From Clostridiales bacterium (GTDB taxonomy: Bacteria; Bacillota; Clostridia; Christensenellales; UBA1242): a stretch of DNA of 64,000 bases. The notes beneath the pieces are model-generated. The model was not told the DNA's origin. It searched no databases and saw only the letters and a program-made list of their open reading frames with translations. Made by a program: the position numbers and the translations under genes. The stretch is from positions 63,044-127,043 of the forward strand of contig DPGI01000005.1 of the NCBI GenBank assembly GCA_003522085.1, read 5' to 3'. How positions within the stretch are numbered: position 1 is the first letter of the stretch; the number at the start of each line of letters is the position of its first letter. Positions 1 through 20,222 of this stretch are shown piece by piece.

Positions 1-1
1 T

Positions 2-661: not shown

Positions 662-673
662 AAAATAAAAAAA

Positions 674-703: not shown

Positions 704-857
704 TTGTTTAAGCATATATAATCATTTGCGGACGGCGAAAGAGAAGAAAAAATTAAAATTTATAATTTTAAAAGGTTGAAATTGTAAGTAAAAACATTTC
801 ACATTTTCAATTTTTTATTTTATAATTAAAGTGTAAGTATAGATAAGGAGAATACGT

Positions 858-2743: not shown

Positions 2744-4358
2744 CAGAGCACTATTCAAACAGTCATGCAAAGCCAATGGCTTAATGTGGGCGATAATAAC
2801 GTTCGCCGTATGCTTTATGCTTGCCTGTGTAATGATGATCGCAGGCGGAGGCAACATTGGCACAATCCGTTCAGGCATAACAAACACAATCATAGAAAGT
2901 TCGGTTGAAGCGCAAGCCAAAACACGTGCGTCAACATATTACAGCATAGTTACTCCGGGATTAAAACAATTTGACGAAACATTTGCGGCAGCATACGCTC
3001 AAAAATACACCGAAATCAAAACAGCTGACCCAAGCGTGCCAGATGAGACAGCATCAGCACAAGCGGGAGCATATGCGCTCAGCACAGGAGTAGGTGTGGT
3101 CAACGTTTATATCAATGACGTTTGCACAAAAAACGGATACGAAGACGGCAGCGTTGAAAAGCAAGAGCTTCAAGGTCTTATGTTTGCGTGCTTTAATCTT
3201 GACATGAATGGCGACGGAACAGCAGATTTCGATTATTTCTATGATGCATATGGAGCAGACGTTAAGCCATACACAACACTACTTTCAACAGTTTCAAGCC
3301 CAAATCGTGACACTGAGCGAAAAGAATATGCCCGCAATTATTGCAGTGTGTTCTTTGCTGGCAATATGGTGAGTGAAGACAACGTTGACAAATTGGTTGT
3401 ACAACTTGAAAAATTTAAAATATCAAAAGAAGGTTATCAAAATCTTACTTACACAAACAAAGCTGGTGAGGAAGTATCAAAATACACAGGCACAAGCGGC
3501 TATTTGTATATTAAAGACCTTGCCACAGACACAATCGTAACACTCCAAGCGCGACTTGATTATGAAATCGCTAAAATCGAAACAACCGACCCAGTCGAAT
3601 ATCAAAAAGAAGTAGCGCGCATCACAAATGAAATCATAGCCGAAAACGGCAAAACATTCCTTTCATCTCTTCCAGAAGATGTGTCGACATCTCTTCAAGA
3701 GGTAGGACAGCTTGATATTTTTGGAATGATAACCGGTTCAGTATATTTCAAAATGGCAGGCTTGTTGCTTCCAATCATCTACATCATCATGGTTTCAAAC
3801 AACTTAATAGCAGGTCAAGTCGATACAGGTTCAATGGCATATGTGCTTTCAACATCAACAAAAAGAAAACAAGTTACCTTCACACAATCAATCTATTTAA
3901 TTCTTTCACTTTTTGTTATGTTTGCGTGCGTAACAATAACGGGAATGGTGTGTCTAGCGTGTCTAAACAGTTCGATGGTTACAGTTTCATATTACGAGCT
4001 CGGCATGCTCAGTCTTGGCGCGTTTATAACACTGTTTGCAATGAGTGGAATCTCATTCTTGGCATCATGCTGGTTCAACCGAAGCAAGCATTCAATGAGT
4101 ATAGGCGGAGGCATCAATATGTTCTTCCTTGTCGCCACAATGCTCGGCTTGTTTGGCAGTAAAGTGCTCCCATCAATCGTGCGTCTCAATTCGCTTAATT
4201 TCTTCAATTATTGCTCAATAATTTCGCTGTTTGACGAAGTTTCAATTTTGGAGGGAACGACAACATTTGCTTGGAAACTTGCCATCTTAGCCGTTATCGG
4301 CATAGTATGCTATATCGTCGGCGCAATCAAGTTTGAAAAGAAAGACTTGCCACTATAA
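2736..4358 (+). CDS. ABC-2 family permease with a large (~300 aa) extracytoplasmic domain
   Basis: One N-terminal TM is followed by a long hydrophilic domain and a C-terminal cluster of ~5 TM helices. The gene is translationally coupled to the two NBD genes, with RBS aaggagg. Confidence 0.7.
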   Translation: MFSRALFKQSCKANGLMWAIITFAVCFMLACVMMIAGGGNIGTIRSGITNTIIESSVEAQAKTRASTYYSIVTPGLKQFDETFAAAYAQKYTEIKTADPSVPDETASAQAGAYALSTGVGVVNVYINDVCTKNGYEDGSVEKQELQGLMFACFNLDMNGDGTADFDYFYDAYGADVKPYTTLLSTVSSPNRDTERKEYARNYCSVFFAGNMVSEDNVDKLVVQLEKFKISKEGYQNLTYTNKAGEEVSKYTGTSGYLYIKDLATDTIVTLQARLDYEIAKIETTDPVEYQKEVARITNEIIAENGKTFLSSLPEDVSTSLQEVGQLDIFGMITGSVYFKMAGLLLPIIYIIMVSNNLIAGQVDTGSMAYVLSTSTKRKQVTFTQSIYLILSLFVMFACVTITGMVCLACLNSSMVTVSYYELGMLSLGAFITLFAMSGISFLASCWFNRSKHSMSIGGGINMFFLVATMLGLFGSKVLPSIVRLNSLNFFNYCSIISLFDEVSILEGTTTFAWKLAILAVIGIVCYIVGAIKFEKKDLPL

Positions 4359-4420
4359 AGCGCGACGCTAAAAAATAAATATTTAAAATGCAATAAAGAA
4401 AGCGCTTAACACACAACACG

Positions 4421-4448
4421 AAAAAACAGGCAGACACCTGTTTTTTTG
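4421..4448 (+). terminator. rho-independent terminator of the ABC operon
   Basis: Stem aacagg (4425-4430) pairs with cctgtt (4437-4442), followed by a T-run. Confidence 0.8.
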
Positions 4449-4529
4449 TTGAAATTTTTGCAGCAAATCAAAATAAATTGACTTTTTTTTAGTAATGATT
4501 ATTATATAAGTATATTTTTAGGAGAATTT

Positions 4530-6533
4530 ATGGAAAATTTTGTTAGACCAAGACCAGTATTTCCAAAACGTGCCGTAATTACAGCAGGCATGCCATATGG
4601 CAACAAATTATTGCATTATGGTCATGTGGGCATGGCGGTGAGAGCGGATATTTTTGCTCGTTTTATGCGTGATAGAATCGGAAAAGACAACGTAATATTT
4701 GTTTCAGGTACAGACTGTTATGGTTCGCCAGCAGTTGAATCCTATCGCAAACTTAAAGAAAACGGACAAATCACAAACGAAACGATCCAACAATACATCG
4801 AAAAAAATCATCTTGCTCAGGCGCAAATTTTTAAGGATTATGAAGTAGGTTTCAACCTTTATGGTGCGTCAGCACTTGGCAGAAGTGGACAAATTCACAA
4901 CCAAACAAGTGAAGAGTTTATTGACGCTTTAAACAATGCGGGAATGGTCAGCAAACATAGTTCGCTTCAATTTTACGACACAACTTTTAAAACACTGTTA
5001 AACGGCAGACAAGTTGTCGGCAAATGCCCAATTCAAGGCTGCCAAAGCGAAAAAGGATATGCCGACGAATGCGGCCTTGGTCACCAATATCTTCCACAAG
5101 ACCTTATCGACCCAGTCAGCACGCTCTCTGGCAAACGCCCTGAACTTGTAAAAATCGAAAACCTTTATTTCAATCTCGAACAATGCACGCCGCTTCTTGA
5201 AGAGTGGATTTCATCAATAGAAAGACAGCCAGACACAGCGTCGTTTATGGTTAAAGAAATCAAAGAATTTTTCAAAAAACCAGAAGTTTACATCAAGCGC
5301 GAATACTTTGCAAAACTTGATGAAATCAAAAATCAACTTCCACACTTCCAGCAAGCCGAAATTGGCGAAAAAACGCCAAGCACAACCATAGTGTTTGACA
5401 CTTTGGCAGATCGTGAAAAAGCGTGTGAAATTCTCGCTGCAAACTCAATCCGCTATCGCACAGGCAAAACGTTGACTCCATTCCGCCTTACAGGCGACAT
5501 CCAATGGGGAGTCCCATGCAAAGAAATTCAAGGCGTAAAAAATCAAACCTTCTATGTTTGGCCTGAAAGTTTGTGGGCTCCAATATCGTTCACAAAAACC
5601 TATCTCGAACAAATTGGTGCACCAAAAGACGAATGGAAGAAATATTGGTGCAGCAAAGATGCTCAGGTTTATCAGTTCTTAGGTGAGGACAACCTTTATT
5701 TCTATGGTCCAGCGCAACAAGCAATGTTCATGGCAACGCAAGGCAAAAATTTCAAATTTGATGCACCGGAGGGTCAACTTCAAATCACCAAAATTTGCCC
5801 AATCAAATCAATTCTTTACATGAATTCAAAAGCAAGTTCGTCAGGCGCATTAAAGCCACCAATGGCAACTGAATTTTTGAATTACTACACGCCAGAACAA
5901 TTCAGAATGCACTTTATGGCAATGAATCTTTCAAACAACAATGTCAGCCTAAGCCCAAAAGCGTTTGATAAAGACGCCGATCCAAACGCTGTCGACCCAA
6001 TGGTGCTTGAAGGCAACTTGCTTACAAACGTCTACAATCGAGTGCTTAGATCAGTGTTTTACTCAATGCAAAATGGCTTTTCTTCAACAATTCCAAACGA
6101 AACAGTAGACCAAGAAATTTTGGATAGTTGCAAAAAAACAATCTTAGACGTTGAAATGTTTATGGCAAACAAAAAGCTTCATCAAGTCTACAACGCAATC
6201 GACGTGTTTATCAGAAATATAAACAAGTATTGGGTAAAAGAGTCAGCTGCAGCAGTCGATGAAAAACAAAAGGCAAAACTTATTGTAAACACTTTGCAAA
6301 TGATAGTCACAGCGGACATCTTGCTGCACCCAGTTGTTCCATCGGGGGCAGAAAAAGTAGCGGCAATGCTTGGTCTTGACGCAAACAAAACTTTTAATTG
6401 GGACAATATTTTCAAGCCATTCCAAACAATGCTTGATGTGGCAAAAGGCGGAAAGATAGTTGAAATAAAAGAAAAGGAAGACTTTTTCAAACGTCATCCA
6501 TGGCAACTCGAACAACTTGCAAAACAAAACTAG
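4530..6533 (+). CDS. metG: methionine--tRNA ligase-like class I aminoacyl-tRNA synthetase (divergent)
   Basis: It has the N-terminal PYGNKLLHYGH (HIGH-type) motif, a TDCYGSP motif, and a knuckle insertion CPIQGC...ADECGLGH like E. coli-type MetRS. The KMSKS position reads MNSKASSSG. RBS is aggag. Confidence 0.65.
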   Translation: MENFVRPRPVFPKRAVITAGMPYGNKLLHYGHVGMAVRADIFARFMRDRIGKDNVIFVSGTDCYGSPAVESYRKLKENGQITNETIQQYIEKNHLAQAQIFKDYEVGFNLYGASALGRSGQIHNQTSEEFIDALNNAGMVSKHSSLQFYDTTFKTLLNGRQVVGKCPIQGCQSEKGYADECGLGHQYLPQDLIDPVSTLSGKRPELVKIENLYFNLEQCTPLLEEWISSIERQPDTASFMVKEIKEFFKKPEVYIKREYFAKLDEIKNQLPHFQQAEIGEKTPSTTIVFDTLADREKACEILAANSIRYRTGKTLTPFRLTGDIQWGVPCKEIQGVKNQTFYVWPESLWAPISFTKTYLEQIGAPKDEWKKYWCSKDAQVYQFLGEDNLYFYGPAQQAMFMATQGKNFKFDAPEGQLQITKICPIKSILYMNSKASSSGALKPPMATEFLNYYTPEQFRMHFMAMNLSNNNVSLSPKAFDKDADPNAVDPMVLEGNLLTNVYNRVLRSVFYSMQNGFSSTIPNETVDQEILDSCKKTILDVEMFMANKKLHQVYNAIDVFIRNINKYWVKESAAAVDEKQKAKLIVNTLQMIVTADILLHPVVPSGAEKVAAMLGLDANKTFNWDNIFKPFQTMLDVAKGGKIVEIKEKEDFFKRHPWQLEQLAKQN

Positions 6534-6555
6534 CATAAACTTATTATATAAAAAA

Positions 6556-6592
6556 ATACACGAACTATCAAAACTAGTCCGTGTATTTTTTT
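6556..6592. terminator. bidirectional hairpin terminator between metG and the (displaced) tRNA-Leu 3' half
   Basis: Arms atacacgaac (6556-6565) and gtccgtgtat (6577-6586) pair at 9/10 positions. The loop is 11 nt. The hairpin is flanked by an A-run and a T-run. Confidence 0.75.
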
Positions 6593-6595
6593 GTG

Positions 6596-6650
6596 TGGTG
6601 CCGGTGGTCGGGGTCGAACCGACACTTGGTTGCCCAAACGAGATTTTGAG
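6596..6650 (-). repeat. truncated copy of the tRNA-Leu(CAA) 3' half (att-like direct repeat, left end of island)
   Basis: These 55 nt are identical to 14603-14657. They cover the CCA end, T arm, variable arm and 3' anticodon stem up to the first anticodon-loop base. No 5' half is present. Confidence 0.9.
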
Positions 6651-6800
6651 GGAGTAATGGATATTCGTTTGGCAATATTTCGGGGTGTTTTCATTACTTA
6701 AAAAATAAAATCTTCTACTTGTGTTATTCTATATTTAGCCAGTATGTAATGGCAAGAAAAGGTATTGAAATCATATGTGAAAGGAATTTTTATAAAAGAC

Positions 6801-6830
6801 TTGACAAATCATCATGAAATTAGGTAAAAT
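6801..6830 (+). promoter_or_regulatory. sigma-A-type promoter of the island operon
   Basis: TTGACA (6801-6806), an 18-nt spacer, then TAAAAT (6825-6830), about 30 nt upstream of the first island gene. Confidence 0.55.
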
Positions 6831-6858
6831 AGACAAAAAGTTAAATGCGTGAGGTTTA

Positions 6859-8133
6859 ATGCGATACAAAGAGGTTAAAGCTTTACAAAATAACATAATA
6901 AAAGATTTTATTGATGATAATAATTTATTCGCAATATTTAAATTGCCAGTAAATATTTTATTTGCTGATAATTTTGTCGCTAATATAAAAAACATGAAAG
7001 ATATTTTTAAACAGAACTGTCTGCGTGAAAATATCTTTTTTTCTTGCAAATGTAATAAAAGTTTTGCCTTCCTTAAAGTGGCTGCTGATTGCGGTTGTGG
7101 TATTGAAGCTTCGTCTAAATTTGAACTTAGAGATGCATTGAAATACACTAAAAAAATAATTGCCACAGGGCCTGGAAAGGACGATGAATATCTTAAATTG
7201 GCGATAGAGAATGAAGTAATAATTTCAGTTGACGACATTGAAGAATTAAAATCAATTGTGAAATTTGATAAACGCGTAAGCGTATTATTACGATGTTCAA
7301 GCAATTGGATAGGAATTCCTAGTCGCTTTGGTATTCAAAAAAATGGAATCGATGATTGCTTAGAATTAATAAAGGATAATCACATTGATTTGTTAGGTTT
7401 TTCTTTTCACATCAATAATTACAATTTAAACGACAGAATTAGAATAGTAAAAGAAATCCTTGATTTAGTTAAAAATAAAAAATTAAGTATTAAAGTTATT
7501 GATATAGGCGGTGGGATTCCTGTAAATTATTGTTCTAAGGAACAGTTCGAGGATTTTATATTAAATAACAAAAAAGAGTTTTACTTTGCTAATAAAAACA
7601 TTAAGAGCTTTTATCCTTATTTTAATAAAGTAGCAGAAAATGAATTTTTAAACAAAATTTTACAGGAAATAAGGAAAGATTTAGGAGACATTGAAATATA
7701 CGCAGAACCTGGTAGGGTTTTGGTTAATAATTGTGGTATCAGTGTTTATAAAGTCGAATATGTGAAAGAAACTCAAGATGGTAATATTGTTGTAGTAAAC
7801 AGTAATATAAACAATTTATCTGAACAGTGGTTTAACACTGATTACCTAATAGAACCCAAATTATATTTAAAAAATCAAACTAACTCGAGGGTTTATTTTG
7901 CTTCTGTGGCAGGTAATTTGTGCTTGGAAAATGATATGGTTACTTGGCGCAAAATTAAATTTTTGCATAAACCTAAATCTGGGGATTTGCTTATATATTA
8001 CAATACAGCAGGTTATCAAATGGATTCCAATGAAAGCATGTTTCATAAAATCCCTTTTGTTGAAAAATATGTTGTCCATAAACAAGATGATATTTATGTG
8101 ATAAGAAAGGATAAAGAATATGATAGGGAATAA
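6859..8133 (+). CDS. PLP-dependent decarboxylase, Orn/DAP/Arg decarboxylase (alanine-racemase fold) family
   Basis: Candidate PLP-lysine motif FFSCKCNKS, glycine loop IDIGGGIP, EPGR, and C-terminal CLENDM, which resembles the active-site Cys region. RBS is gtgagg. Confidence 0.75.
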   Translation: MRYKEVKALQNNIIKDFIDDNNLFAIFKLPVNILFADNFVANIKNMKDIFKQNCLRENIFFSCKCNKSFAFLKVAADCGCGIEASSKFELRDALKYTKKIIATGPGKDDEYLKLAIENEVIISVDDIEELKSIVKFDKRVSVLLRCSSNWIGIPSRFGIQKNGIDDCLELIKDNHIDLLGFSFHINNYNLNDRIRIVKEILDLVKNKKLSIKVIDIGGGIPVNYCSKEQFEDFILNNKKEFYFANKNIKSFYPYFNKVAENEFLNKILQEIRKDLGDIEIYAEPGRVLVNNCGISVYKVEYVKETQDGNIVVVNSNINNLSEQWFNTDYLIEPKLYLKNQTNSRVYFASVAGNLCLENDMVTWRKIKFLHKPKSGDLLIYYNTAGYQMDSNESMFHKIPFVEKYVVHKQDDIYVIRKDKEYDRE

Positions 8134-9115
8134 TATTTTGGATTTAATTGGGCATACCCCTTTATTAAAATTAAACATGAAAATGAACAATTGGAAAATT
8201 TATCTTAAACTTGAAAAGTTTAATCCAGGGCAATCAATGAAAGACAGAATGGCTTTAAATATGATTGAACAAGCAGAAAAACGAGGAGATTTAAAACCAG
8301 GTGGGACGATAATTGAATCATCTTCTGGGAATACGGCTACCGGGTTGGCGATTGTGGCGGCAGTAAAAGGGTATAAGTTCATTGCTGTAGTGGATCATCA
8401 TGCATCAGAGGATAAAATAAAAATTATTAAAGCTTATGGCGGACAAATAGTTATGGTGGGTGATTCAAAAAAAGCAGATGAAGTGGCAGTCGTTGAACGA
8501 GAAAATAAGGCATTGGAACTATCAAAAAAAATCAAGAATTCTTATGTACCAAAGCAACATGAAAATGTCGACAATAGAGGAGCTTACATTGATTCACTTG
8601 CCAAAGAACTAATTGATGAACTTGTGGTAATTGATCTGCTTTATGGTTCAATTGGAACTGGTGGCTCTATATGTGGTACTGCTCTTGGTATGAGAAAATA
8701 TAATTCAAAGTGTAGAATAAATGCTGTTGAACCTGTGGGATCTATTATTTTTGGTGGGAAAGGAGGACCATATTTTCAATCTGGGACAGGGAATCCACCA
8801 GATGCAGAAATTCCACCCATTATTGATTATTCGCTTATTGATAATAATTTTTATGCAAGTGATAAAGAAGCTTTTAATACTTGTAGATATATAGCTAAAA
8901 ACTTCGGCGTTATGTTAGGTGGATCTGGCGGAGGAGTATTATATAAAGCTTTGGAAGATATAAATTCAATGAGTGGCTCAGGCACGGCCGTTGTCATTGT
9001 TTGCGATGGGGGAGAAAAATATTTAGATAGTGTATTCAATGATTGTTGGATGAAACAAAACAATATGCTGGACCCTTCTGTCAATGAAAAATTGAATAAA
9101 TGGTTAAGGAGGTAA
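8120..9115 (+). CDS. PLP-dependent beta-replacement enzyme, cysteine synthase (CysK/SbnA-like) family
   Basis: PLP-lysine motif NPGQSMKDR and SSSGNTATGLA loop, with fold-type II length (331 aa). It overlaps the upstream gene by 14 nt. Confidence 0.8.
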   Translation: MIGNNILDLIGHTPLLKLNMKMNNWKIYLKLEKFNPGQSMKDRMALNMIEQAEKRGDLKPGGTIIESSSGNTATGLAIVAAVKGYKFIAVVDHHASEDKIKIIKAYGGQIVMVGDSKKADEVAVVERENKALELSKKIKNSYVPKQHENVDNRGAYIDSLAKELIDELVVIDLLYGSIGTGGSICGTALGMRKYNSKCRINAVEPVGSIIFGGKGGPYFQSGTGNPPDAEIPPIIDYSLIDNNFYASDKEAFNTCRYIAKNFGVMLGGSGGGVLYKALEDINSMSGSGTAVVIVCDGGEKYLDSVFNDCWMKQNNMLDPSVNEKLNKWLRR

Positions 9116-10248
9116 AGTTGGAACTAAACTCTTGGGAAAAAAAATCATTAAAGAAGTTAACTAAAAAATATATAGATCTTTATGTGGCGTTATCAAAAGA
9201 AAGCAAAAAATGTTTTAGAATTGATTCTCATACCATATTTAATTCAGATACAAAAGAATTAACTCAACAACAAAAAAATAAAATAGTTGATTATTGGCAT
9301 AACTATACAAAAGATTTTGATATTAATTATCATAAATATTACATAGATAAAACTGGTATGTTTGATGTTCGTTTTATTCCAGACGATATTTTTGCGGGAT
9401 ATATAGATCCTTATTTAAACAATAGAGAGATAGAACCGGGAATAGCTGATAAGAATTATTTTGATTTGTTTTTAAAAGGATTCAAAATGCCAAAGACTTA
9501 TGTAAGATTGATAAATGGCATTTATGAAGATGAAAATTATAACATAATCCCCCGTTGTAAAGTTTTAGAAAAATTAACAAGTATAAAAAAATTTGTGGTT
9601 AAACCTAGTACGGCTTCATACGGTGGCAAAAATGTTACTTTTTTTGAAAATGCAACACTTGAAGAAATTGAAAATTTCATAAATATAAATAAAACGAGGA
9701 ATTTAATATTTCAAGAAATTGTGGATCAGCATGAATCAACAGCATCGATTCATCCAAAATCTTTAAATACAATTAGAATTATGACTTTAATAATTGATAA
9801 TGATGTTAAAGTTTTGCCTTGTGCTTTTAGAATGGGGGTTGGGGCGGCAAGAGTCGATAATGCTAGCTTTGGAGGAATATACTGTAAGATTTTTGAAGAT
9901 GGAACCTTATCTGATTTTGCATACGATGCTTTAGGCCACAAATTTTATAAGCATCCAGATGGGAAAGAGTTTTCAAGCGTTAAAATTGATTGCTTAGATA
10001 AAGTAAAAGATTTAGTTAAAAAGGCGGCACAAAGATTTCCTCATTTCAGATTGATTGGTTGGGATATTGGAATTGATAAAGAAGGAGAGCCTATTATTAT
10101 TGAAGCTAATCTTACAATGAGTGGGTTAGACGTGATTGAAACAATATGTGGGCCACTTTTTGGTGACTATACAGATATGGTTTTAAATGAAGTTTTTAAA
10201 AATCCAAAAAAGAAAGAAATTAGTATGGATATTTCACAATATGTTTAG
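9100..10248 (+). CDS. ATP-grasp amidoligase (sugar-transfer-associated/TupA-like ATP-grasp type)
   Basis: Motifs FVVKPSTASYGGKNV, IFQEIV, RVDNASFGGI, and a C-terminal IIEANL catalytic-loop-like motif. An alternative start is TTG 9118, 5 nt after AAGGAGG. Confidence 0.6.
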   Translation: MVKEVKLELNSWEKKSLKKLTKKYIDLYVALSKESKKCFRIDSHTIFNSDTKELTQQQKNKIVDYWHNYTKDFDINYHKYYIDKTGMFDVRFIPDDIFAGYIDPYLNNREIEPGIADKNYFDLFLKGFKMPKTYVRLINGIYEDENYNIIPRCKVLEKLTSIKKFVVKPSTASYGGKNVTFFENATLEEIENFININKTRNLIFQEIVDQHESTASIHPKSLNTIRIMTLIIDNDVKVLPCAFRMGVGAARVDNASFGGIYCKIFEDGTLSDFAYDALGHKFYKHPDGKEFSSVKIDCLDKVKDLVKKAAQRFPHFRLIGWDIGIDKEGEPIIIEANLTMSGLDVIETICGPLFGDYTDMVLNEVFKNPKKKEISMDISQYV

Positions 10249-10257
10249 GAGAAAAAT

Positions 10258-11247
10258 ATGGAAAATAAAGAAGAATACATTTATGCAGGTGTGTCTACCT
10301 TTATGGGCAGCAAAATGATTACTCAAGAAGAAATTAAAAATTATGATATTGTTTTTCTTGGAGTGCCATGTGACTATGGTGCATCTTATAGATTGGGGGC
10401 AAAATATGCGCCACGACAATTAAGAGAATATTCGTTTTGGGACAGGATAAATGGACAAGAATTGTACGATTTAGACCATAATAAATATATCAAAACAAAT
10501 AATTTACGTATTGCAGATTATGGAGATGTGTATGTTTATCCAACTAATCCAAATAAGAATCAAGATGAAATTACAAACACTGTGTATAATATCACTAAAG
10601 AATCTTTTCCTTTGATTTGTGGTGGTGATCATTCAATTACATATGGAAGTTTTAGGGGGTTTTACAGGGCTATTAAAGAACGATTTCCTGATTACGAAGT
10701 TGGAATTATACATTTTGATGCTCACCTAGATGTTGAAAAAGAATACTTAAATATGCCAAATGTATGGCATGGTAACGTTTTCAGAAAATTGATTGAAGAT
10801 GGATTCTTAAAAGGAGAAAACCTTTTTAGCATTGGGCCACGAGGGGTTGTGGATAAGCAGTGGTTTAATTATGAAAAAGAACAAAAAATAAATTTATTTA
10901 CATCAAATCAAGTTAAACAACAAGGTATTGAAAATGTAATCGATAAAATAAAAGAGGTTAATAAGAATAAGAAGATCATATTTTATATATCTTTTGATAT
11001 AGATGCAATAGATATTTCTTATATATTCGGTACGGGAACGCCGCAATGTAATGGATTGTCGCCTTATGAATGCGACAATGCCTTAAGAATGTTGAATGAA
11101 TTAAAAATTGGTGGATTTGATATCGTTGAATTAAATCCAAAGTTGGATCCATCAAATACTGCTTTTGTTATTGCTTGTGAATTAATTTATCATTTTTTAG
11201 CGTTGGGGTATGGAGGTATTAATGGAAAAAATAGCAATATTATTTAA
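10258..11247 (+). CDS. arginase/agmatinase/formimidoylglutamase-family ureohydrolase
   Basis: The Mn-binding motifs of the family are present: GGDHSITYG, HFDAHLD and SFDIDAID. Confidence 0.85.
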   Translation: MENKEEYIYAGVSTFMGSKMITQEEIKNYDIVFLGVPCDYGASYRLGAKYAPRQLREYSFWDRINGQELYDLDHNKYIKTNNLRIADYGDVYVYPTNPNKNQDEITNTVYNITKESFPLICGGDHSITYGSFRGFYRAIKERFPDYEVGIIHFDAHLDVEKEYLNMPNVWHGNVFRKLIEDGFLKGENLFSIGPRGVVDKQWFNYEKEQKINLFTSNQVKQQGIENVIDKIKEVNKNKKIIFYISFDIDAIDISYIFGTGTPQCNGLSPYECDNALRMLNELKIGGFDIVELNPKLDPSNTAFVIACELIYHFLALGYGGINGKNSNII

Positions 11248-12181
11248 TTTAAATCGCCATCAATTTGACTATGAAACGGAATTTGATTCCCCGGTTACCA
11301 TAGAATCAATTTATAATTCTCTAAAAGATAAATATGAAATTAAATTTATAGAAGCGGTAAGGGATTTTTCGTGGATTAAAGAGATTATTGATTTTAATCC
11401 TAATTTAGTATTCAATATTTGCGAGGGTTATTATGGGCCCGCAAGGGAATCTGTTTATGCTGCGATTTTAGAACAGCTTAATCTCAACTATTCCGGTCCT
11501 GACAGTACGAATTTATTAATATGTCATAATAAAATTTTAACAAAAAGATTACTGGAAAATAAAATTTTAGTTCCTAGAGGGTATTGCATCACAAGTATTG
11601 AGCAGTTAAAAAACATCGAATTAAGCTTTCCTTTAATAGTAAAGCTTAATTCAGAAGGATCAAGTTTAGGGATGAGTGAAAAATCAATCGTTAATAACTT
11701 TAAAGAATTATCAGAACAGGTAAATGAGATGATTCAAAAATTTAATAGAGGAATATTAATTGAAGAATTTATTGATGGACAAGATATCAGCATGATTTTT
11801 GTAGAGGGTATTGGTGCCTTGGGGCCATGCGAAATTGATTGCGGTGCAACTTTTTATGATTATGATATGAAATCCATTAAAGATGATACAGTAGACATCA
11901 AAGAGTTAAAAGGTGATTATCAACGTCTTAAAAATATTGTTGATTATGTAGCTAATAGGTTAGATATAAAAGGTTATGCGAAATTGGATTTTAGGATTAA
12001 TGATGGCAACTATTACCTTATAGAGGTTAATTCACAAGTAAGTTTCCATCCCCATGGAGAGTTTATTACTTGTGCAAAAGCTGATGGCTATTCTTTTGAC
12101 CAAATCATAAATCATGTTGTGAATTATGCTTTACGCAATAAAATAAAATATAGTTCTATAGGAATAGGGGGCGACAAATGA
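11222..12181 (+). CDS. D-alanine--D-alanine ligase-like ATP-grasp ligase
   Basis: Ddl-like N-domain (LNYSGPDSTNLLICHNKILTKRLL), LIVKLNSEGSSLGM, and C-terminal YLIEVN. I chose ATG 11222 (GGAGG 5-6 nt upstream); the ORF track starts at 11210. It overlaps the ureohydrolase gene. Confidence 0.75.
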   Translation: MEKIAILFNLNRHQFDYETEFDSPVTIESIYNSLKDKYEIKFIEAVRDFSWIKEIIDFNPNLVFNICEGYYGPARESVYAAILEQLNLNYSGPDSTNLLICHNKILTKRLLENKILVPRGYCITSIEQLKNIELSFPLIVKLNSEGSSLGMSEKSIVNNFKELSEQVNEMIQKFNRGILIEEFIDGQDISMIFVEGIGALGPCEIDCGATFYDYDMKSIKDDTVDIKELKGDYQRLKNIVDYVANRLDIKGYAKLDFRINDGNYYLIEVNSQVSFHPHGEFITCAKADGYSFDQIINHVVNYALRNKIKYSSIGIGGDK

Positions 12182-13251
12182 TAAATGAAATAGTGGATCA
12201 AGAAATTTTAACTACATACAATTATTTGGTGGAAAAAGAATCATTGCTTCCTATTAAAATTTCAAATTTTTATATGAAAAAAGTTGTTGAAGAGTTTCAA
12301 ACAATAGGTGTAAACGGACCATTATTTAGGTCGGTTTTACCAACAAAAAACAGGTGGGAAGTAAAAACTAGCGAAGAAACAAGAGATTATGTGGAAGAAG
12401 TCAAGCATAATCCTATTGAGAATGTCGATTATATAATTCAGAAATATGATAATAGATTAGTGTTTATTATCACCGACGTATGTTTTTCGCATTGCCAATA
12501 TTGTTTTAGATCATATAATTTATCTAAATTTCAGCAAAGCAATTTAAAAGAAACAATAAAAAATAAAGTTAAAACATTAAAAGAATATTTAAGTAAAAAT
12601 CCTTTGATTGAAGAGGTAATTTTTTCGGGAGGAGATCCATTAAGTATAGGATATGCAAATTTAAAATTTGCTTTAGAAGAGCTGAAAGGCTTTAAAATTA
12701 GGATACATACTCGTGCAATAGTTTACAATCCTTTTGTGTTTGATAAAAAAATTATAAAATTATTTAAGAAACATAATATTAGATTGGTATTTCATATTAA
12801 TCATCCATATGAAATATGCAGTGAAGTTGAAAAGATTATAAATAATATAGATCATGCGGGAATTCATATGTATGCTCAATTCCCATTGCTTAGGGGAATA
12901 AATGATCACTATTTAGTTTTAAAAATGCTTTTAGAAAAGATGGACGAGTTGCATATCCGCCCAATTTCAATATTCATTCCAGATCCAATTTCATATAGTG
13001 CGGATTATAGATTATCCTTTAATAGAATTCTTGAAATTATGGATGAATTAAATTGGAAAACAGCTTCTTGGATTAATTCTGTAAGATTTACAATGGATAC
13101 AACAATAGGTAAAGTAAGAAGAGAAAATATAACACAACATGTTGGCAAAAGAATTGTATTATCTAGAGAGGGGAAAAATGTTGATTATTATGATTTAGAT
13201 CAAGGCATCGACAAACCATCGGATGTGAATATCTTATTGTGGAAAAGATAA
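12178..13251 (+). CDS. KamA-family radical-SAM amino acid 2,3-aminomutase (lysine/arginine aminomutase or EpmB-like)
   Basis: CxxxCxxC cluster CFSHCQYCFR preceded by YDNRLVFIITDV, plus GGDPL. At 357 aa it has the short EpmB-like size. It has an ATGA overlap with the upstream gene. Confidence 0.85.
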   Translation: MINEIVDQEILTTYNYLVEKESLLPIKISNFYMKKVVEEFQTIGVNGPLFRSVLPTKNRWEVKTSEETRDYVEEVKHNPIENVDYIIQKYDNRLVFIITDVCFSHCQYCFRSYNLSKFQQSNLKETIKNKVKTLKEYLSKNPLIEEVIFSGGDPLSIGYANLKFALEELKGFKIRIHTRAIVYNPFVFDKKIIKLFKKHNIRLVFHINHPYEICSEVEKIINNIDHAGIHMYAQFPLLRGINDHYLVLKMLLEKMDELHIRPISIFIPDPISYSADYRLSFNRILEIMDELNWKTASWINSVRFTMDTTIGKVRRENITQHVGKRIVLSREGKNVDYYDLDQGIDKPSDVNILLWKR

Positions 13252-13252
13252 T

Positions 13253-13281
13253 TTGACTTTTTGAAAGATAAAAATTATAAT
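13253..13281 (+). promoter_or_regulatory. near-consensus sigma-A promoter in front of the rsgA-like gene
   Basis: TTGACT (13253-13258), a 17-nt spacer, then TATAAT (13276-13281). RBS aaaggaggg follows. Confidence 0.65.
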
Positions 13282-13298
13282 GTAAAAAGGAGGGCATT

Positions 13299-14363
13299 AT
13301 GCCACATTATGAAAGTTATCAAAGTTTTCAAACGAAAAAAAGTATAAATAAAAAAAATAAAGCTAAAGAAGTTTCTGCGAATAAAAGCATAGACGAGGCC
13401 TTTGTCATATCTAGAAAAAAATTAGGCGATATTGATTTGCCTATTGTAATAGAAACAACATACAAAGAAGCGAAGGTGTTATATAAAGGTGAAATAATAA
13501 CGGTGTATGGGATGCAACGAAATATTCCATGCAATCAATTAGTTTTTCCAGGTGATTATGTAGTTTTAGATGGCGACAATAAAAAAATTACGAATGTACT
13601 GGAACGTTCTACTATTCTGTCGCGTGATCACAAGGATAGAGCGAGAAGATCAAATGTCGTATTAAATAAAGTTGTTGCAACTAATATTGATACTGCTGTT
13701 ATCGTAGTTTCAGCATACTCACCACCATTGCATCCTAAATTTATAGATAGATATCTAATGATTTTGCAAAATTGTGGAATTGAACCGATTATTTGTTTGA
13801 ATAAGGCGGATTTAAAAACTAAACAAGACGAAGAAGTTTTAGATATTTATAGACATTTGAACATTCCAGTTGTAGAAACTTCTGCATTAAATAACGAGGG
13901 CGTCGAAAATTTAAAAAATTATTTGTATAACAAAAGGGCTATTTTTGTTGGGCATAGCGGAGTCGGTAAATCTACATTAACAAATGCTTTAATGAATTTT
14001 AATGAAATTAAGACTGGAGATGTGGGCAATAAAAGCTTAAGAGGACGACACACAACAACGTCATCAAAATTTTATTATTGGAACGACCATTCATCCATTA
14101 TTGACACTCCTGGTATAAGGGCTTTAGATGTGTCAAGTTTTCAACCATCAGAAGTACAATACTACTTTCCAGAGTTTCTAAATTATCTCAATTGTAAATA
14201 TCGTTCTTGCGATCATGTAGAGGTTAAAACAGAAGATTGTGGAGTTAAAACTGCTGTTAAAGATGGCTTAATAAAGTCGAGCAGGTATGAAAGCTATGTT
14301 AGAATTATGGAAGATTTAACACAAAATGAAAAAAAAACAAAAAATGATGAGCTCTGTATATAG
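13299..14363 (+). CDS. rsgA: RsgA/YjeQ-like circularly permuted ribosome-biogenesis GTPase (island-borne paralogue)
   Basis: OB-like N-domain, then permuted G motifs NKADL (G4), GHSGVGKST (G1) and DTPG (G3), then a C-terminal zinc motif CKYRSCDH...C. It has a K-rich N-terminal extension and AT-rich codon usage like the rest of the island. Confidence 0.8.
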   Translation: MPHYESYQSFQTKKSINKKNKAKEVSANKSIDEAFVISRKKLGDIDLPIVIETTYKEAKVLYKGEIITVYGMQRNIPCNQLVFPGDYVVLDGDNKKITNVLERSTILSRDHKDRARRSNVVLNKVVATNIDTAVIVVSAYSPPLHPKFIDRYLMILQNCGIEPIICLNKADLKTKQDEEVLDIYRHLNIPVVETSALNNEGVENLKNYLYNKRAIFVGHSGVGKSTLTNALMNFNEIKTGDVGNKSLRGRHTTTSSKFYYWNDHSSIIDTPGIRALDVSSFQPSEVQYYFPEFLNYLNCKYRSCDHVEVKTEDCGVKTAVKDGLIKSSRYESYVRIMEDLTQNEKKTKNDELCI

Positions 14364-14556
14364 CAATATTATCTTGCATAATTTATTAATGTATTTTGTT
14401 TGGGAAAGTGACAGAAATTTTGAGTTTAAATATAAACGAAAATTTATAAAAAACAACTATTCCATATATAACGAATTATTTTGTTAAAAAGTCAGATATG
14501 CTACATAATGAATCAAAAAATCTTTAAAGTGTTATTATCGATGTTCAGTTTAATAA

Positions 14557-14599
14557 ATACACGAACACTAAGTTTGTCTTAATTGTCCGTGTATTTTTT
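14557..14599. terminator. second copy of the metG/tRNA-Leu hairpin (same arms, different loop)
   Basis: Arms atacacgaac (14557-14566) and gtccgtgtat (14585-14594) are identical to 6556-6565 and 6577-6586. The 18-nt loop is unrelated. A T-run follows. Confidence 0.65.
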
Positions 14600-14602
14600 G
14601 TT

Positions 14603-14688
14603 TGGTGCCGGTGGTCGGGGTCGAACCGACACTTGGTTGCCCAAACGAGATTTTGAGTCTCGCGCGTCTGCCATTCCGCCACACCGGC
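14603..14688 (-). tRNA. tRNA-Leu (anticodon CAA), type II, CCA encoded
   Basis: 86 nt. Acceptor GCCGGTG/CACCGGC, 3-bp D stem GCG/CGC, anticodon stem CGAGA/TCTCG with loop CTCAAAA, long variable arm (TTGG-GCAA-CCAA), T arm GTCGG-TTCGACC-CCGAC, and discriminator A plus CCA. Confidence 0.95.
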
Positions 14689-14707
14689 AAGTGTCATAAA
14701 CAGGTAT

Positions 14708-14736
14708 ATTCTAACACAAACAAAAAAAATTTACAA
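14708..14736 (-). promoter_or_regulatory. promoter of tRNA-Leu
   Basis: On the minus strand: TTGTAA (14736-14731), a 17-nt spacer, then TAGAAT (14713-14708), about 20 nt upstream of the mature 5' end. Confidence 0.6.
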
Positions 14737-14898
14737 GAAAATTACGCAAATTTGTTTTAAAAAACATTTTTTACAAAAATGCCCTATTTTAGGGTAATTT
14801 TGCCGTCATAAATAAGTTATTTTAATGTCAATGTGGCGTCAAATTTCGACATTTTTGTAAAAAAATCGCAAAAACGATTAAATTTTTGGCACTAAGGT

Positions 14899-14927
14899 TT
14901 GACTATTAAAATATCCAATTTTATAAT
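14899..14927 (+). promoter_or_regulatory. sigma-A-type promoter of the sigma-region-4-like gene
   Basis: TTGACT (14899-14904), a 17-nt spacer, then TATAAT (14922-14927). Confidence 0.6.
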
Positions 14928-14960
14928 TTTAGCAGTGAAAATAAAAGGGGAGATTTAGAT

Positions 14961-15467
14961 ATGCAAAATCACATTTGGGGCAAAACACTTCTTTCAGCTT
15001 ATCGTTTTTTAGAGCGTATTGCAGGAGCAATAGACAAAATAATTGAGAAAAAAGCACTTGCTTCTTCTTGGGCAACTTCGTTCAGCAGTGTGGCAAACAG
15101 CACTTTAGAGCTTGCTGACCAAATCATCGAACTTTCCGAGCGCAAAGTAAAGTTAATCAATATCAAATTGTTGATTGAAAAAGCGTTAAAAAAGCTTGAT
15201 AAAAAAGACGCGAAAATTTTAATTTGCAAGTATTTTGATAAGATGGGACCTGAAGAAATTATCGCTTCGTTTGGCCTTTCGCGCCGCTCATATTTCAGAC
15301 GCATACAAGATGCCGAATCAAGTTTTGAGTCATCGTGCGCGTCGCTTGGTTTTCCGATATCTCGTCTGCAAACTTATCTTGACAGCGAAGAATGGATTAA
15401 GCAAATTGCAGCTACATTTCAAGCAAAACAAGCCAAAGAAAAAAAGGGCAGCGCCCTTTCAATTTAA
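14961..15467 (+). CDS. sigma-70 region-4-like HTH protein (phage late-gene activator, ArpU/RinA-like)
   Basis: The C-terminal half LDKKDAKILICKYFDKMGPEEIIASFGLSRRSYFRRIQDAESSF has the region-4 HTH pattern. The gene sits just upstream of a terminase large subunit gene, as late activators do in siphophages. Confidence 0.45.
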   Translation: MQNHIWGKTLLSAYRFLERIAGAIDKIIEKKALASSWATSFSSVANSTLELADQIIELSERKVKLINIKLLIEKALKKLDKKDAKILICKYFDKMGPEEIIASFGLSRRSYFRRIQDAESSFESSCASLGFPISRLQTYLDSEEWIKQIAATFQAKQAKEKKGSALSI

Positions 15468-16262
15468 GTCATCTTCATTAAATTCATAATAATCTCTTCC
15501 TCTTTTAAGTGGTGGAGATTTTTCTTTTCTGCCTTTGGCAAAAAGTCTGCGTTTTTTCGGACTTAAAATCAAATACAAAATCACAAGGCAAGGCAGCGAA
15601 ACACCCAAAATAATCATTGCTTTTGACGTATCGCTCAGTCCACCGCCGCTAGGCAAATCGCCCGAAAAGTTAAGTGGAGTTGTTATTTCGGGAAAGTATT
15701 CCATGTTTTCGCTTGCAAGCGTCAAATTGTCACAAAAATATGAAAACGCATAACCTTTGATTTCTTCGCCGCCGTTAGAAAGCGAGCAATAATACCATTT
15801 ATTTGTTGATTTCGGAAACAGTTCGTCGCCATAGCAAGTTCCATAAAGCACAACATTTTCTTGCAAAAAACTCAGTTTTCCACACTTTGCTGCGCCGGCC
15901 ATTGGTGCTGAAAACACGTCAAGGCCGTTTTGTGCAAACGCCCGAAAACTTTGACTGGCATATGGCGTCGAAGGCACGCCGTCCATAGGCGTCACTTCAT
16001 CTTTTTTAACATAGCCTTGAAGCGAAGCATACTTGGCGTAATAAAAGTCATCTTTTTCGTTTATAAGCAGCACGAAATACGAGTTTGGCAAGATAAAAAG
16101 TTTACTCTCTTCGCTGTCGTTAGGGCTTGAGTAAAAATAGATATTTTCGCTTAAAACCTTTGCAAAATAAGTCTTGTTTTGACCGCTCACAGCAAAAGTT
16201 GTGCCCGTTTGCGAAGGCCACAAAATGAATAAAAATGAAAATAGAACAATCAACAATTTCAT
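15459..16262 (-). CDS. secreted/membrane-anchored protein with two bacterial SH3-like domains
   Basis: N-terminal signal peptide, two SH3b-like segments, and a C-terminal TM followed by a basic tail. Its 3' end overlaps the convergent gene by 9 nt. Confidence 0.5.
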   Translation of the reverse strand: MKLLIVLFSFLFILWPSQTGTTFAVSGQNKTYFAKVLSENIYFYSSPNDSEESKLFILPNSYFVLLINEKDDFYYAKYASLQGYVKKDEVTPMDGVPSTPYASQSFRAFAQNGLDVFSAPMAGAAKCGKLSFLQENVVLYGTCYGDELFPKSTNKWYYCSLSNGGEEIKGYAFSYFCDNLTLASENMEYFPEITTPLNFSGDLPSGGGLSDTSKAMIILGVSLPCLVILYLILSPKKRRLFAKGRKEKSPPLKRGRDYYEFNEDDLN

Positions 16263-16325
16263 AGCAAAATTATATCGTCAAAAAATGAAAATTTAAAATA
16301 AAAACATGTCATAAAGGGGGGAGAG

Positions 16326-17762
16326 ATGTCGCAAATAATAGAAAAGATTAAAGCGATTGATGCCGAAATAAAACGCCGCGAAGAAAGTGATAACTTGCTT
16401 CGCTACAACACCGGCGATAAGATACATTTAAAACAGGTTGCATTTCATAAATGCACAAAACGCAATCGTTGGGTCTTCGGTGGAAATCGCAGCGGCAAAA
16501 GCGAGTGCGGTGCGGCCGAAGTTGTCTATCTTGCCCGCGGCAATCATCCATATAAGCCCAACAAAAAAGAAGGCGTCGAAGGCTGGGTTGTGTCACTTTC
16601 ACGTCAAGTCCAAAGAGATGTTGCACAGCAAAAAATACTGCATTATCTAAATCCAAAGTGCATCGAAAAAATAGTCATGACATCTGGCCGAGCCGACAGC
16701 CCCGAAAGCGGTATAATTGATTTCATTTTAGTGCGCAATGAGTTTGGAAATCTCAGCAAAATTGGTTTTAAAAGTTGCGACCAAACTCGCGCAAAATTTC
16801 AAGGTTCATCGCTTGATTTTGTGTGGTTTGATGAAGAGCCGCCATTCGATATTTATCGCGAATGCCAGATGCGTGTGCTTGATAAACAAGGCGAAATATT
16901 TGGAACGATGACCCCGCTAAAAGGGCTGACATGGGTTTATAAAGAAATCTATCTAAACGCAAATAATTCGCCAGAAGTATGGCATGAAAGTATGTCTTGG
17001 CACGACAATCCCTTTCTTTCAAAAACCGAAATTGACTTCTTTTCGTCGTGCCTGCCCGAAGATGAACTCGCCAGCCGTCGTGACGGTAAATTTACTGCTC
17101 TTGGCGGTCAAGTTTATCCTGAGTTTGACGAAAACGTGCACATCATTGAGCCCTTTGATGTTCCGCTTGAATGGCAAGACAACATTTCAATCGACCCAGG
17201 TCTAAACAACCCGCTTTCCGCGCATTGGTATGCAGTTGATTTTGATGGAAACGTCTATGTCGTCGCCGAGCACTTTGAAGCTAAAAAAGACGTTGTTTAT
17301 CACGCTGAAAGACTCAAACAAATTTCTCAGCGCTTATCGTGGAAAAGAGAGCGCAACGGAATGCTTGGCGCACTTATCGACAGCGCAGCAACTCAGCGCA
17401 CGTTAGCGGCAACGAAAAGCGTTGTCGAACTGTTTTATGACAATGGCATCTTGGTCAATCCGCGAGTCAACAAAGATATGTTCAGCGGCATTTCAACAGT
17501 CAAACGCTATTTAAAAGACGGCGAAGGCAAGCCGCATTTGTTTATATTCAAAAATTGCACAAATTTAATTCGAGAGTTTAAATCATACTGGTGGGGCGAT
17601 CAGGATCTACCAATAAAAAATGATGACCACAGTTTGGACGAACTTAGATATTATTTAATGTCAAAACCAAAAATACCTCAAAAAAATGAAATAAAAAATG
17701 AATTATATGAAGAAAAAATGCGTTTAATGCGCAAATTAAAGGCGAAAAAAACAAGATTTTGA
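16326..17762 (+). CDS. phage terminase large subunit (Terminase_6/PBSX-like), orphan
   Basis: Walker A GGNRSGKS, Walker B LDFVWFDEE, and a C-terminal nuclease-type region (ISIDPG, DDHSLDELRYYLM). RBS is ggggggag. Confidence 0.8.
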   Translation: MSQIIEKIKAIDAEIKRREESDNLLRYNTGDKIHLKQVAFHKCTKRNRWVFGGNRSGKSECGAAEVVYLARGNHPYKPNKKEGVEGWVVSLSRQVQRDVAQQKILHYLNPKCIEKIVMTSGRADSPESGIIDFILVRNEFGNLSKIGFKSCDQTRAKFQGSSLDFVWFDEEPPFDIYRECQMRVLDKQGEIFGTMTPLKGLTWVYKEIYLNANNSPEVWHESMSWHDNPFLSKTEIDFFSSCLPEDELASRRDGKFTALGGQVYPEFDENVHIIEPFDVPLEWQDNISIDPGLNNPLSAHWYAVDFDGNVYVVAEHFEAKKDVVYHAERLKQISQRLSWKRERNGMLGALIDSAATQRTLAATKSVVELFYDNGILVNPRVNKDMFSGISTVKRYLKDGEGKPHLFIFKNCTNLIREFKSYWWGDQDLPIKNDDHSLDELRYYLMSKPKIPQKNEIKNELYEEKMRLMRKLKAKKTRF

Positions 17763-17835
17763 AATATTTTTTACATTTGTTTGGAAAAATAAAATAAATA
17801 TGATAAATTTAAATAGTAAGGAAAATATAAAAAAT

Positions 17836-20190: not shown

Positions 20191-20222
20191 AGATAGCAAA
20201 AAATTAAAAATTGCAAAAAAGT

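Follow-up and report, generated by a model that had tools for sequence, protein, structure and literature searches.

A putative cis-mobilizable island carrying a travelling seven-gene operon at the tRNA-Leu(CAA) gene of a gut Clostridia species

The 64-kb stretch of DNA analyzed here (the window; 64,000 nt of contig DPGI01000005.1) comes from an uncultured gut Clostridia species. It is identical to a 242-kb metagenome contig in the ENA, and related metagenome-assembled genomes (MAGs) are labelled Candidatus Onthoplasma. Between metG and a tRNA-Leu(CAA) gene, the window carries an AT-rich island of 7,952 nt (6651-14602) that lies between two exact copies of the tRNA 3′ half and encodes a seven-gene operon. 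This segment is probably a horizontally acquired, non-autonomous island of the type called a cis-mobilizable element (CIME), with intact attL and attR sites and no genes for integration or transfer. A first-pass annotation of the same DNA had read the two copies as attL and attR, and that reading is supported by an exact empty site in another strain, by composition and by the finding that the left copy is not a tRNA gene.

The island and its attachment sites at tRNA-Leu(CAA)

The 55-mer TGGTGCCGG...GATTTTGAG occurs at 6596-6650 and at 14603-14657 in direct orientation with 0 mismatches. No further copy was found in the window with up to 3 mismatches allowed, and none of 100 dinucleotide-preserving shuffles contained a match. 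If 1 mismatch is allowed, the repeat lengthens to 64 nt, beginning at 6587 and 14594. ARAGORN called one tRNA in the whole window, tRNA-Leu(CAA) with its anticodon at position 34, and Rfam confirmed it (Table 1). Neither program called a tRNA at the left copy, and the fragment has no tRNA fold; it does not belong to a second functional tRNA. The identical segment comprises tRNA positions 32-86 in ARAGORN coordinates, from the whole 7-nt anticodon loop (CUCAAAA) to the encoded CCA, and includes the 3′ strand of the anticodon stem, the long variable arm, the T arm and the acceptor strand. The two sequences diverge once the 5′ strand of the anticodon stem is reached; there the left copy continues with GGAGTAATGG and the gene with TCTCGCGCG. 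The first-pass annotation had described the exact match, its extent from the CCA end to the 5′ edge of the anticodon loop and the point at which identity stops in just these terms.

The DNA between the copies is 29.9% GC. Same-size windows elsewhere in the 64 kb have a GC fraction of 0.400 ± 0.007 (n = 166; minimum, 0.382), which places the island 14 standard deviations (SD) below them. By tetranucleotide content it lies at an L1 distance of 0.46 from the rest of the window, versus at most 0.13 for other windows, and GC content at third codon positions (GC3) is 0.20 to 0.25 in the seven island genes versus 0.31 to 0.42 in 15 flanking genes. GC skew along the island runs from +0.17 to +0.31. 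The composition, k-mer content and GC3 of the island are foreign. Hand-counted lines had suggested an AT-rich block in flanks of 47 to 48% GC; the contrast was real when computed, and the island was a strong outlier by all three measures, but the flanks are about 40% GC. The seven open reading frames (ORFs) are tightly packed and point in one direction, a single co-directional block as first described, and the noncoding ends of 208 nt on the left (6651-6858) and 239 nt on the right (14364-14602) likewise agree with the earlier account.

Conspecific contigs were gathered through DUF1492 and TerL, the right-hand neighbors of the tRNA gene, and their metG-DUF1492 intervals were compared. Four alleles, A to D, were present. 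The first-pass annotation had proposed searching relatives for an empty site, and one was found as allele A (L061), in which metG is followed by the window's 62-nt hairpin spacer, the intact tRNA-Leu gene and DUF1492; this is an exact empty site. The metG-DUF1492 intergenic region measures 420 nt in L061 versus 8,427 nt in the window, a difference of 8,007 nt, and L061 aligns to window positions 1-6650 and 14585-27762 with a 75-nt overlap that is the duplicated segment. Allele B is the majority type: among the contigs listed, 14 lack the island and have instead a 314-nt spacer that is unrelated and carries another terminator. Allele C (L006) has a different AT-rich, phage-like block of 5.4 kb without a tRNA fragment, and allele D, that of the window, corresponds to allele A with the island added. 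Allele D, which is in the minority, was seen in at least ten samples, and the four or more alleles mark the metG-tRNA-Leu junction as an integration hotspot. Adjacency of metG and tRNA-Leu is not kept beyond the window's species; in L018, the interval is filled with ordinary genes.

The window derives from a metagenome assembly, and short repeats can misjoin contigs. The repeat could then be an assembly chimera, or else the remnant of a tandem tRNA duplication or a second functional tRNA, with the AT-rich genes being native. We find this hardly credible. The metG-island-tRNA arrangement was bridged in metagenome assemblies at k = 119 and 141 from several samples, and Logan k = 31 contigs end at window positions 6625, 6621 and 14632, as a 55-nt repeat predicts; the arrangement is therefore not an assembly artifact. 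It recurs in independent assemblies, built with k-mers longer than the repeat, from no fewer than the ten samples mentioned above. The single tRNA call, the exact empty site and the 14-SD deficit in GC all argue against a duplication among native genes, as does the presence of the operon in unrelated genomes whose flanking DNA is about 25 to 30% GC. An 8,012-nt Logan contig was considered as a circular form of the island and rejected, its ends being those that a k = 31 graph gives for a 55-nt repeat.

An intact tRNA gene (tDNA) accompanied by a displaced fragment is the described signature of tDNA islands (PMC4383910). On this model, a circular form would have borne an attP in which the island's right arm and terminator hairpin were joined to the left arm through 55 nt copied from the 3′ half of tRNA-Leu(CAA). 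Recombination with the tRNA-Leu(CAA) gene of the chromosome would have taken place within these 55 identical nucleotides. The chromosomal 3′ half would have been displaced, with its own hairpin, to its place beside metG, and the island-borne 3′ half and hairpin would have regenerated a functional tRNA. The reconstructed attP junction reads ...GTCCGTGTATTTTTTGTTTGGTGCC, the 55-nt core and GGAGTAATGGATATTCG.

Both hairpins could be followed in other strains. The one at 6553-6592 stands with identical sequence before the intact tRNA in the empty-site strain L061. The one at 14557-14599, which terminates the operon and the regenerated tRNA, is identical in a second island-bearing strain, L085, despite the other type of chromosomal spacer there. 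The two hairpins have both stem arms in common, including the same A·C mismatch, and differ in their loops; since the stems also match, the segment homologous at both ends of the island is really about 100 nt. The island's attP flank and the A-type chromosomal spacer thus appear to be homologous. The element may once have captured this flank, or the A-type spacer may be the scar of an earlier related element.

Recombinase search and variation within the species

None of the seven island proteins has an integrase, excisionase, relaxase or transposase domain according to Pfam and NCBIfam; all are enzymes or a GTPase. Nor do they include genes of a type IV secretion system (T4SS), of an oriT/relaxase system, of replication or of packaging interference, and by these criteria the island falls outside integrative and mobilizable elements (IMEs) and integrative and conjugative elements (ICEs) as well as phage-inducible chromosomal islands (PICIs). 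A tblastn search of the window with the integrase (Int), excisionase (Xis), MobL relaxase and neighboring proteins of L067, an element with the same operon, returned nothing. An iteratively built hidden Markov model (HMM) of tyrosine recombinases picked up ten integrase ORFs, of the Xer-like as well as the phage type, in eight other loci. It gave no match with the window's ORFs, nor with the island and its ends translated in six frames, where scores did not exceed 0.8 bits. The tblastn and six-frame searches found no integrase remnants in the island and its ends, and the earlier statement that neither an integrase nor an obvious remnant lies inside agrees with every search. Among 30 further window ORFs of at least 150 aa, Pfam likewise found no recombinase, only housekeeping and sporulation genes.

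Attachment sites without a recombinase had been taken as an anomaly in the first-pass annotation; they are a described category. CIMEs are defined as cis-mobilizable elements and are often found in tandem with incoming elements (PMC5704250). The island retains attL and attR in two strain backgrounds and lacks integration and transfer genes.

The second background is that of L085. Its island differs from the window's at 20 of 7,952 nt (99.75% identity), and the chromosomal flanks of the two strains are 98.5 to 98.7% identical; the island is therefore younger than the divergence of the strains. The order in L085 is metG, the 314-nt B spacer, the tRNA 3′ half, GGAGTAATGG..., the island hairpin and the tRNA. 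In both backgrounds, then, the displaced fragment keeps the host flank and the regenerated tRNA carries the island hairpin, which is the prediction of Campbell-type integration at attB.

Homologous recombination probably adds to the spread of the island within the species. A dense patch of 16 single-nucleotide polymorphisms (SNPs) at 14691-14833, just upstream of the tRNA-Leu 5′ end, distinguishes the window from all other strains; part of it matches the more divergent L006 lineage, and it is probably the boundary of a recombination tract beside the island. The tRNA-Leu variable arm has a C/T polymorphism at core position 38 (window 14640 and 6633). The left copy in L085 has C, and the right copy in L085 (15504+37) and the empty-site strain L050 (9644+37) have T. 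Whether the crossover is to be placed in the anticodon loop or 3′ of this SNP depends on which partner carried T.

These observations bear on the idea that RecA alone brought or spread the island, by a Campbell-type single crossover at the 55- to 64-nt identity or by import of a donor segment with flanking homology. Homology does run past the tRNA into the hairpin stems for a total of about 100 nt, the SNP patch to the right of the tRNA looks donor-like, all strains are mosaic at 98 to 99% identity, and the segregation of the core SNP is compatible with a crossover outside the anticodon loop. However, identity ends exactly at the 5′ edge of the anticodon loop, which chance homology would not do, and a purely RecA-dependent origin is less likely for this reason. 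The anticodon-loop edge was reportedly described by Williams in 2002 as a classic crossover sublocation of tyrosine integrases. An earlier event would still be needed to make an element with a tRNA 3′ half, and relatives of the cassette adjoin genuine integrases and att repeats. We therefore regard RecA-only arrival or spread as very unlikely.

Other features of the locus also vary or recur among strains. The L006 block (L006:12005-17453; CAVCJG010000002.1) occupies the same metG-tRNA-Leu interval and is about 31% GC. It encodes an XRE repressor, two paralogous ORFs of 292 and 304 aa whose promoters are duplicated, a Terminase_4 small subunit, a ParB_N protein, an unknown protein of 186 aa and a radical-SAM protein; no integrase or tRNA-fragment repeat was found in it. 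The B-type spacer (L049-L066, e.g., L049:9329-9643) has its own terminator. It matches the L006 block over no more than its first ~37 nt, and its origin as a deletion product of the L006 island was rejected on that ground. In every allele, a different terminator abuts the tRNA at its 3′ end, the picture that replacement by successive elements would give. The segment immediately to the right of tRNA-Leu (window 14961-20190), present in all strains examined, encodes a phage-type DUF1492 regulator, an ORF of 267 aa on the minus strand, an orphan large subunit of the Terminase_6N type (16326-17762) and a membrane-anchored protein of 796 aa without a Pfam match; it looks like a fixed phage remnant. 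In L006, the terminase small subunit lies across the tRNA from the Terminase_6N large subunit. At the far left of the window, a BclA-like collagen-repeat spore-surface protein (47-661) measures 225 to 243 aa among strains, presumably through variation in the number of collagen repeats.

The operon on other elements

The cargo is a 7.6-kb operon that extends from its promoter to the stop codon of an RsgA paralogue. Context look-ups and a metagenome scan recovered many contigs with the same set of seven genes, in unchanged order and closing with RsgA. On some of them the operon is expanded to 10 to 12 genes, and RsgA is the final gene in every carrier whose sequence reaches the operon's end. At the nucleotide level, homology to the window starts at 6690-6782 and ends at 14345-14366, matching the span from promoter to RsgA stop codon. 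For L067 and L076, blastn homology starts at 6765-6782, and the left arm (6651-6781) is found only in the island of the window's species.

Several of these contigs bear integrases. The L067 copy is 79.7% identical to the window's over 7.6 kb, and the arms are unrelated. In L067 and L068, the operon lies 3.6 kb downstream of a tRNA-Gly(TCC) gene, with a major facilitator superfamily (MFS) gene and an unknown gene upstream of it. Downstream are two unknown genes, a MobL relaxase gene, an HTH_17 gene and a gene for a 450-aa Phage_integrase, the stretch from MobL to the integrase lying 1.9 to 5.2 kb past RsgA; Xis also accompanies MobL and the integrase in this type of element. A 164-nt tandem duplication in L067 (4094-4421), 91% identical, starts inside the 3′ end of tRNA-Gly(TCC) and suggests repeated integration at a tRNA-Gly att site. 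In L104 and L105, the cassette directly follows an intact secA gene, and about 280 nt past RsgA stands a tyrosine integrase gene followed by an XRE regulator. This integrase has an Arm-DNA-binding domain; it is intact in L105, and in L104 its gene is interrupted by an in-frame stop. A 97% identical copy of the cassette occurs without an integrase in L101, between att-repeat copies of a five-copy array. The repeat there (L101:421-13324) is about 150 nt long and joins the 3′ end of secA, with its SEC-C motif, to a terminator and GGAGCCA-N4-GGAGCCA; its copies bracket the operon cassette and a 289-aa ORF, and the five-copy array is a tandem accretion. Paired GGAGCCA also flanks the L104 cassette (7470-7680 and 15517), beside the integrase gene; a recombinase might bind there.

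Other contigs show the operon with less around it. L076 is a 7,833-nt contig with the operon only, 92.6% identical to the L067 copy. Its ends overlap by 21 nt, which by k-mer arithmetic implies a 39-nt flanking direct repeat; the same arithmetic gives back the 55-nt repeat for L005. The operon begins about 60 nt past a tRNA 3′ end in L069 and lies near a TraG/VirD4 coupling protein gene in L083, and in L099 and L100 the cassette stands among ordinary genes with no repeats. Flanking DNA in L070 and L069 is 25 to 30% GC, like the operon, which suggests that the operon is native to lower-GC lineages.

Copies of the gene block without the repeat, which the first-pass annotation had named as a point against integration, literally do occur in other taxa, but their contexts are mobile-element or chromosomal. 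The operon is found in differing contexts and is therefore a travelling cassette rather than a native gene block, which strengthens the integration reading. It circulates among low-GC gut bacteria on several integrative elements, which target tRNA-Leu, the secA 3′ end and probably tRNA-Gly.

The related cassettes form a series: near an integrase and a relaxase, beside an integrase, beside a pseudogenized integrase, and without an integrase between att repeats. Because this series runs from a full integrase module to none, a CIME with a lost recombination module is favored. The island would then be the stripped-down cargo module of an IME-like element from which the integrase and the mobilization module had been lost, and at present its movement would require help from outside, RecA-dependent recombination or incorporation in a composite element. 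Loss of the recombinase module is the account that we prefer, and dependence on the integrase of another element follows close behind.

In the latter case, the island would never have had an integrase and would be a minimal hitchhiker moved in trans by the tRNA-Leu(CAA)-specific tyrosine integrase of an ICE, IME or prophage in the same cell, acting on attP-sized ends of about 500 nt. We consider this possible, if somewhat unlikely. Both att cores are perfect, and together the noncoding ends amount to 502 nt, roughly as long as an attP. The same 7.95-kb unit stands behind two spacers and is five to six times less diverged than its flanks. L076 is a second operon-only unit with a different inferred repeat (39 nt), and elements with an integrase and MobL are present in related species (L008, L011). 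However, no candidate helper integrase or element was seen, and homologous recombination can explain the spread between backgrounds. The PALP gene of the operon is frameshifted in L085 and L090 (see below), and such decaying cargo looks like a passive passenger.

Several findings weigh against the preferred account of a CIME derived by loss of its recombinase. No tRNA-Leu(CAA)-specific integrase was identified anywhere, only 64 kb of the genome being visible, and the island has no remnants of a lost integrase, its decay being deduced from relatives. Arm-type repeats in the reconstructed 502-nt attP were no more frequent than in shuffled sequence, and the 45-nt core was not in any IMG/VR contig, so that no attP-bearing phage was recovered; both results also tell against a helper integrase. 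The homology of the hairpins is unneeded by integrase chemistry and suggests that the element and this locus share a longer history or that homologous recombination played a part. The population is highly recombinant and mosaic, and exchange of the left spacer by homologous recombination is another way in which the island could have come to stand in two backgrounds. One crossover in the 55- to 64-nt identity would leave the same picture, and the two backgrounds need not reflect two independent integrations.

Cargo proteins, predicted product and known systems

The coordinates of the island's features and the family assignments of its proteins are collected in Table 1.

Table 1. Features of the island and its borders in the window
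Feature	Coordinates	Strand	Basis or remarks
Hairpin, A/T-flanked, between metG and displaced fragment; chromosomal bidirectional terminator of empty-site allele	6553..6592	.	-21.5 kcal/mol, z = -6.6
Displaced tRNA-Leu(CAA) 3′ fragment, attL core	6596..6650	-	Exact copy of 14603-14657; island-specific GGAGTAATGG next
Island-specific left arm	6651..6781	.	No homology to other carriers save a weaker L069 match from 6690
Promoter-like site, TTGACA-18 nt-TAAAAT	6801..6830	+	11/12 consensus positions; inside segment conserved among other operon carriers
PLP-dependent decarboxylase, Orn/DAP/Arg (alanine-racemase fold) family, 424 aa	6859..8133	+	Pfam Orn_Arg_deC_N 1.3e-26, Orn_DAP_Arg_deC
PALP-fold beta-replacement enzyme (SbnA/CysK/CBS-like), 331 aa	8120..9115	+	Pfam PALP 5e-57
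ATP-grasp ligase, ATPgrasp_ST family, 382 aa	9100..10248	+	Pfam PF14397 1.5e-38
Arginase-fold ureohydrolase (agmatinase/guanidino-acid hydrolase-like), 329 aa	10258..11247	+	Pfam Arginase 2.1e-71
D-Ala-D-Ala-ligase-like ATP-grasp ligase, 323 aa	11210..12181	+	Pfam Dala_Dala_lig_C 1.2e-24
KamA-family radical-SAM amino-acid 2,3-aminomutase, 357 aa	12178..13251	+	Pfam Radical_SAM; CxxxCxxC
RsgA/YjeQ small-subunit GTPase paralogue, 354 aa, last operon gene	13299..14363	+	Pfam RsgA_GTPase 1.2e-51
Island-specific right arm	14364..14556	.	No homology to other carriers past 14345-14366; only in this species' island
Island-borne hairpin	14557..14599	.	-13.2 kcal/mol, z = -3.2; homologous to 6553-6592
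Intact tRNA-Leu(CAA); positions 32-86 (14603-14657) are the attR core	14603..14688	-	ARAGORN; Rfam 56.6 bits

The pyridoxal phosphate (PLP)-dependent decarboxylase scored under all NCBIfam equivalog cutoffs, and its weak matches in the Protein Data Bank (PDB) were diaminopimelate (DAP) and ornithine decarboxylases. For the PALP enzyme, the top NCBIfam model was the SbnA family (255 bits versus a cutoff of 350), and PDB matches were cystathionine beta-synthase (CBS), cysteine synthase and SbnA. Its gene has a 1-base deletion in an A run (window 8524) in L085 (9022-10016) and L090 (1518-2512), which yields two 163-aa ORFs; the PALP cargo of these two strains is decaying or phase-variable. The ATPgrasp_ST ligase had no NCBIfam match and no PDB relative. 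Its homologues (303 at E ≤ 1e-10) are from metagenomes or MAGs, and none of the 120 listed had an informative name; one 504-aa homologue (P0114) is fused to the N-terminal domain of seryl-tRNA synthetase (PF02403). The ligase had no match in INPHARED phages, and PLSDB plasmids gave only distant matches (≤30% identity) in exopolysaccharide clusters; neither collection held a close relative of the operon. The top PDB matches of the ureohydrolase were agmatinase 2, guanidinobutyrase, guanidinopropionase and proclavaminate amidinohydrolase. The D-Ala-D-Ala ligase (Ddl)-like protein scored under the Ddl cutoffs, with PDB Ddl matches of 4.6e-19 or weaker.

The KamA-family protein scored 153.6 bits with TIGR00238 (cutoff, 199.2) and has the motif CFSHCQYC. 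It matched the lysine 2,3-aminomutase (LAM) structure 2A5H at 6.3e-24, and one Asp aligned with LAM Asp293, which we take to be the residue that binds the distal amine of the substrate. The RsgA paralogue, a full-length protein, was the sole cargo protein above an equivalog cutoff (TIGR00157, 198.9 bits; cutoff, 100). Its residues 124-345 of 354 align to the Salmonella and Escherichia coli RsgA structures, and in this alignment it keeps the NKxD, GxSGVGKS and DTPG motifs and the C-terminal C...C.H...C cluster. Rfam found no riboswitch or small RNA in the operon leader, PADLOC matches to defense systems were only weak and generic (radical-SAM, GTPase), and the window's copy of the operon has no exporter gene. 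No paper joining RsgA, an aminomutase and ATP-grasp enzymes was found in the literature searched. One match for RsgA and self-resistance was a generic marker table and was discarded.

Because an aminomutase, a decarboxylase, a guanidino hydrolase, a PALP enzyme and two ATP-grasp ligases stand together, the operon might build a small amide-linked compound, with a beta-amino acid in it, from basic amino acids or polyamines; we propose this with low confidence. Against it stands the fact that the chemistry is predicted from family-level domain matches, most of them under equivalog cutoffs. The RsgA paralogue, invariant among carriers, suggests a connection with the 30S subunit, perhaps as an immunity factor, a copy of the target or a partner. 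A bolder proposal, which we hold to be doubtful, is that the operon is a new and widely mobile cassette of gut Firmicutes whose product, a beta-amino-acid pseudopeptide or polyamine conjugate, would hit the 30S subunit or its assembly, with RsgA as a resistant target copy or protection factor. The minimal att-flanked forms (the island, L076 and L101) would then be cargo units passed between integrases of different specificity. If the operon makes a bioactive compound, it would be an undescribed mobile trait of the human and animal gut microbiome. As the mobile-element side falls in a known category, the conserved, unannotated operon with its RsgA paralogue is the more useful lead. The island itself is a clean natural case, being integrase-less and att-flanked, with an exact empty site and a second strain background.

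Pathways for staphyloferrin B (Sbn) and other pseudopeptides derived from amino acids employ SbnA-like PALP enzymes, PLP decarboxylases and amide ligases. The island operon resembles the Sbn pathway in combining an SbnA-family PALP enzyme, a decarboxylase of the Orn/DAP/Arg fold and ATP-dependent amide-bond enzymes. Unlike that pathway, it has no SbnB, NRPS-independent siderophore (NIS) synthetase, exporter or receptor, and it has ATP-grasp ligases, a KamA-family aminomutase, an agmatinase-like hydrolase and RsgA, all matched at the family level only.

Among mobile elements, the MobL/tyrosine-integrase IMEs represented by L067 and L068 share the seven-gene operon and have a tRNA gene (tRNA-Gly) upstream; the window's island differs in its unrelated arms and in lacking the MFS, MobL, HTH_17 and integrase genes. 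It agrees with the tDNA islands found by Islander (tyrosine-integrase islands in tRNA and tmRNA genes; PMC4383910) in having the intact tDNA at one end and a displaced, direct 3′ fragment at the other, with identity from the anticodon loop to the 3′ end, a tRNA regenerated by island DNA, an empty site in relatives and foreign composition. In contrast with those islands, it is small (7.95 kb) and has no integrase gene, and island finders that require one, such as Islander, would miss it. The closest likeness is to the CIMEs of Firmicutes that flank ICESt1/ICESt3-type elements. The island differs from these in that it has no recognizable remnants of a decayed ICE or IME and no accretion partner in the window and in that its target is tRNA-Leu(CAA) in an uncultured Clostridia lineage. 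Like those CIMEs, it is bordered by direct repeats, attL and attR, which take in the target gene's 3′ end, and it carries cargo only, with no integrase, excisionase, relaxase or T4SS genes. Its relatives with the same cargo stand beside integrase-bearing elements and in tandem att arrays (L101, L104/L105), as is also seen for CIMEs.

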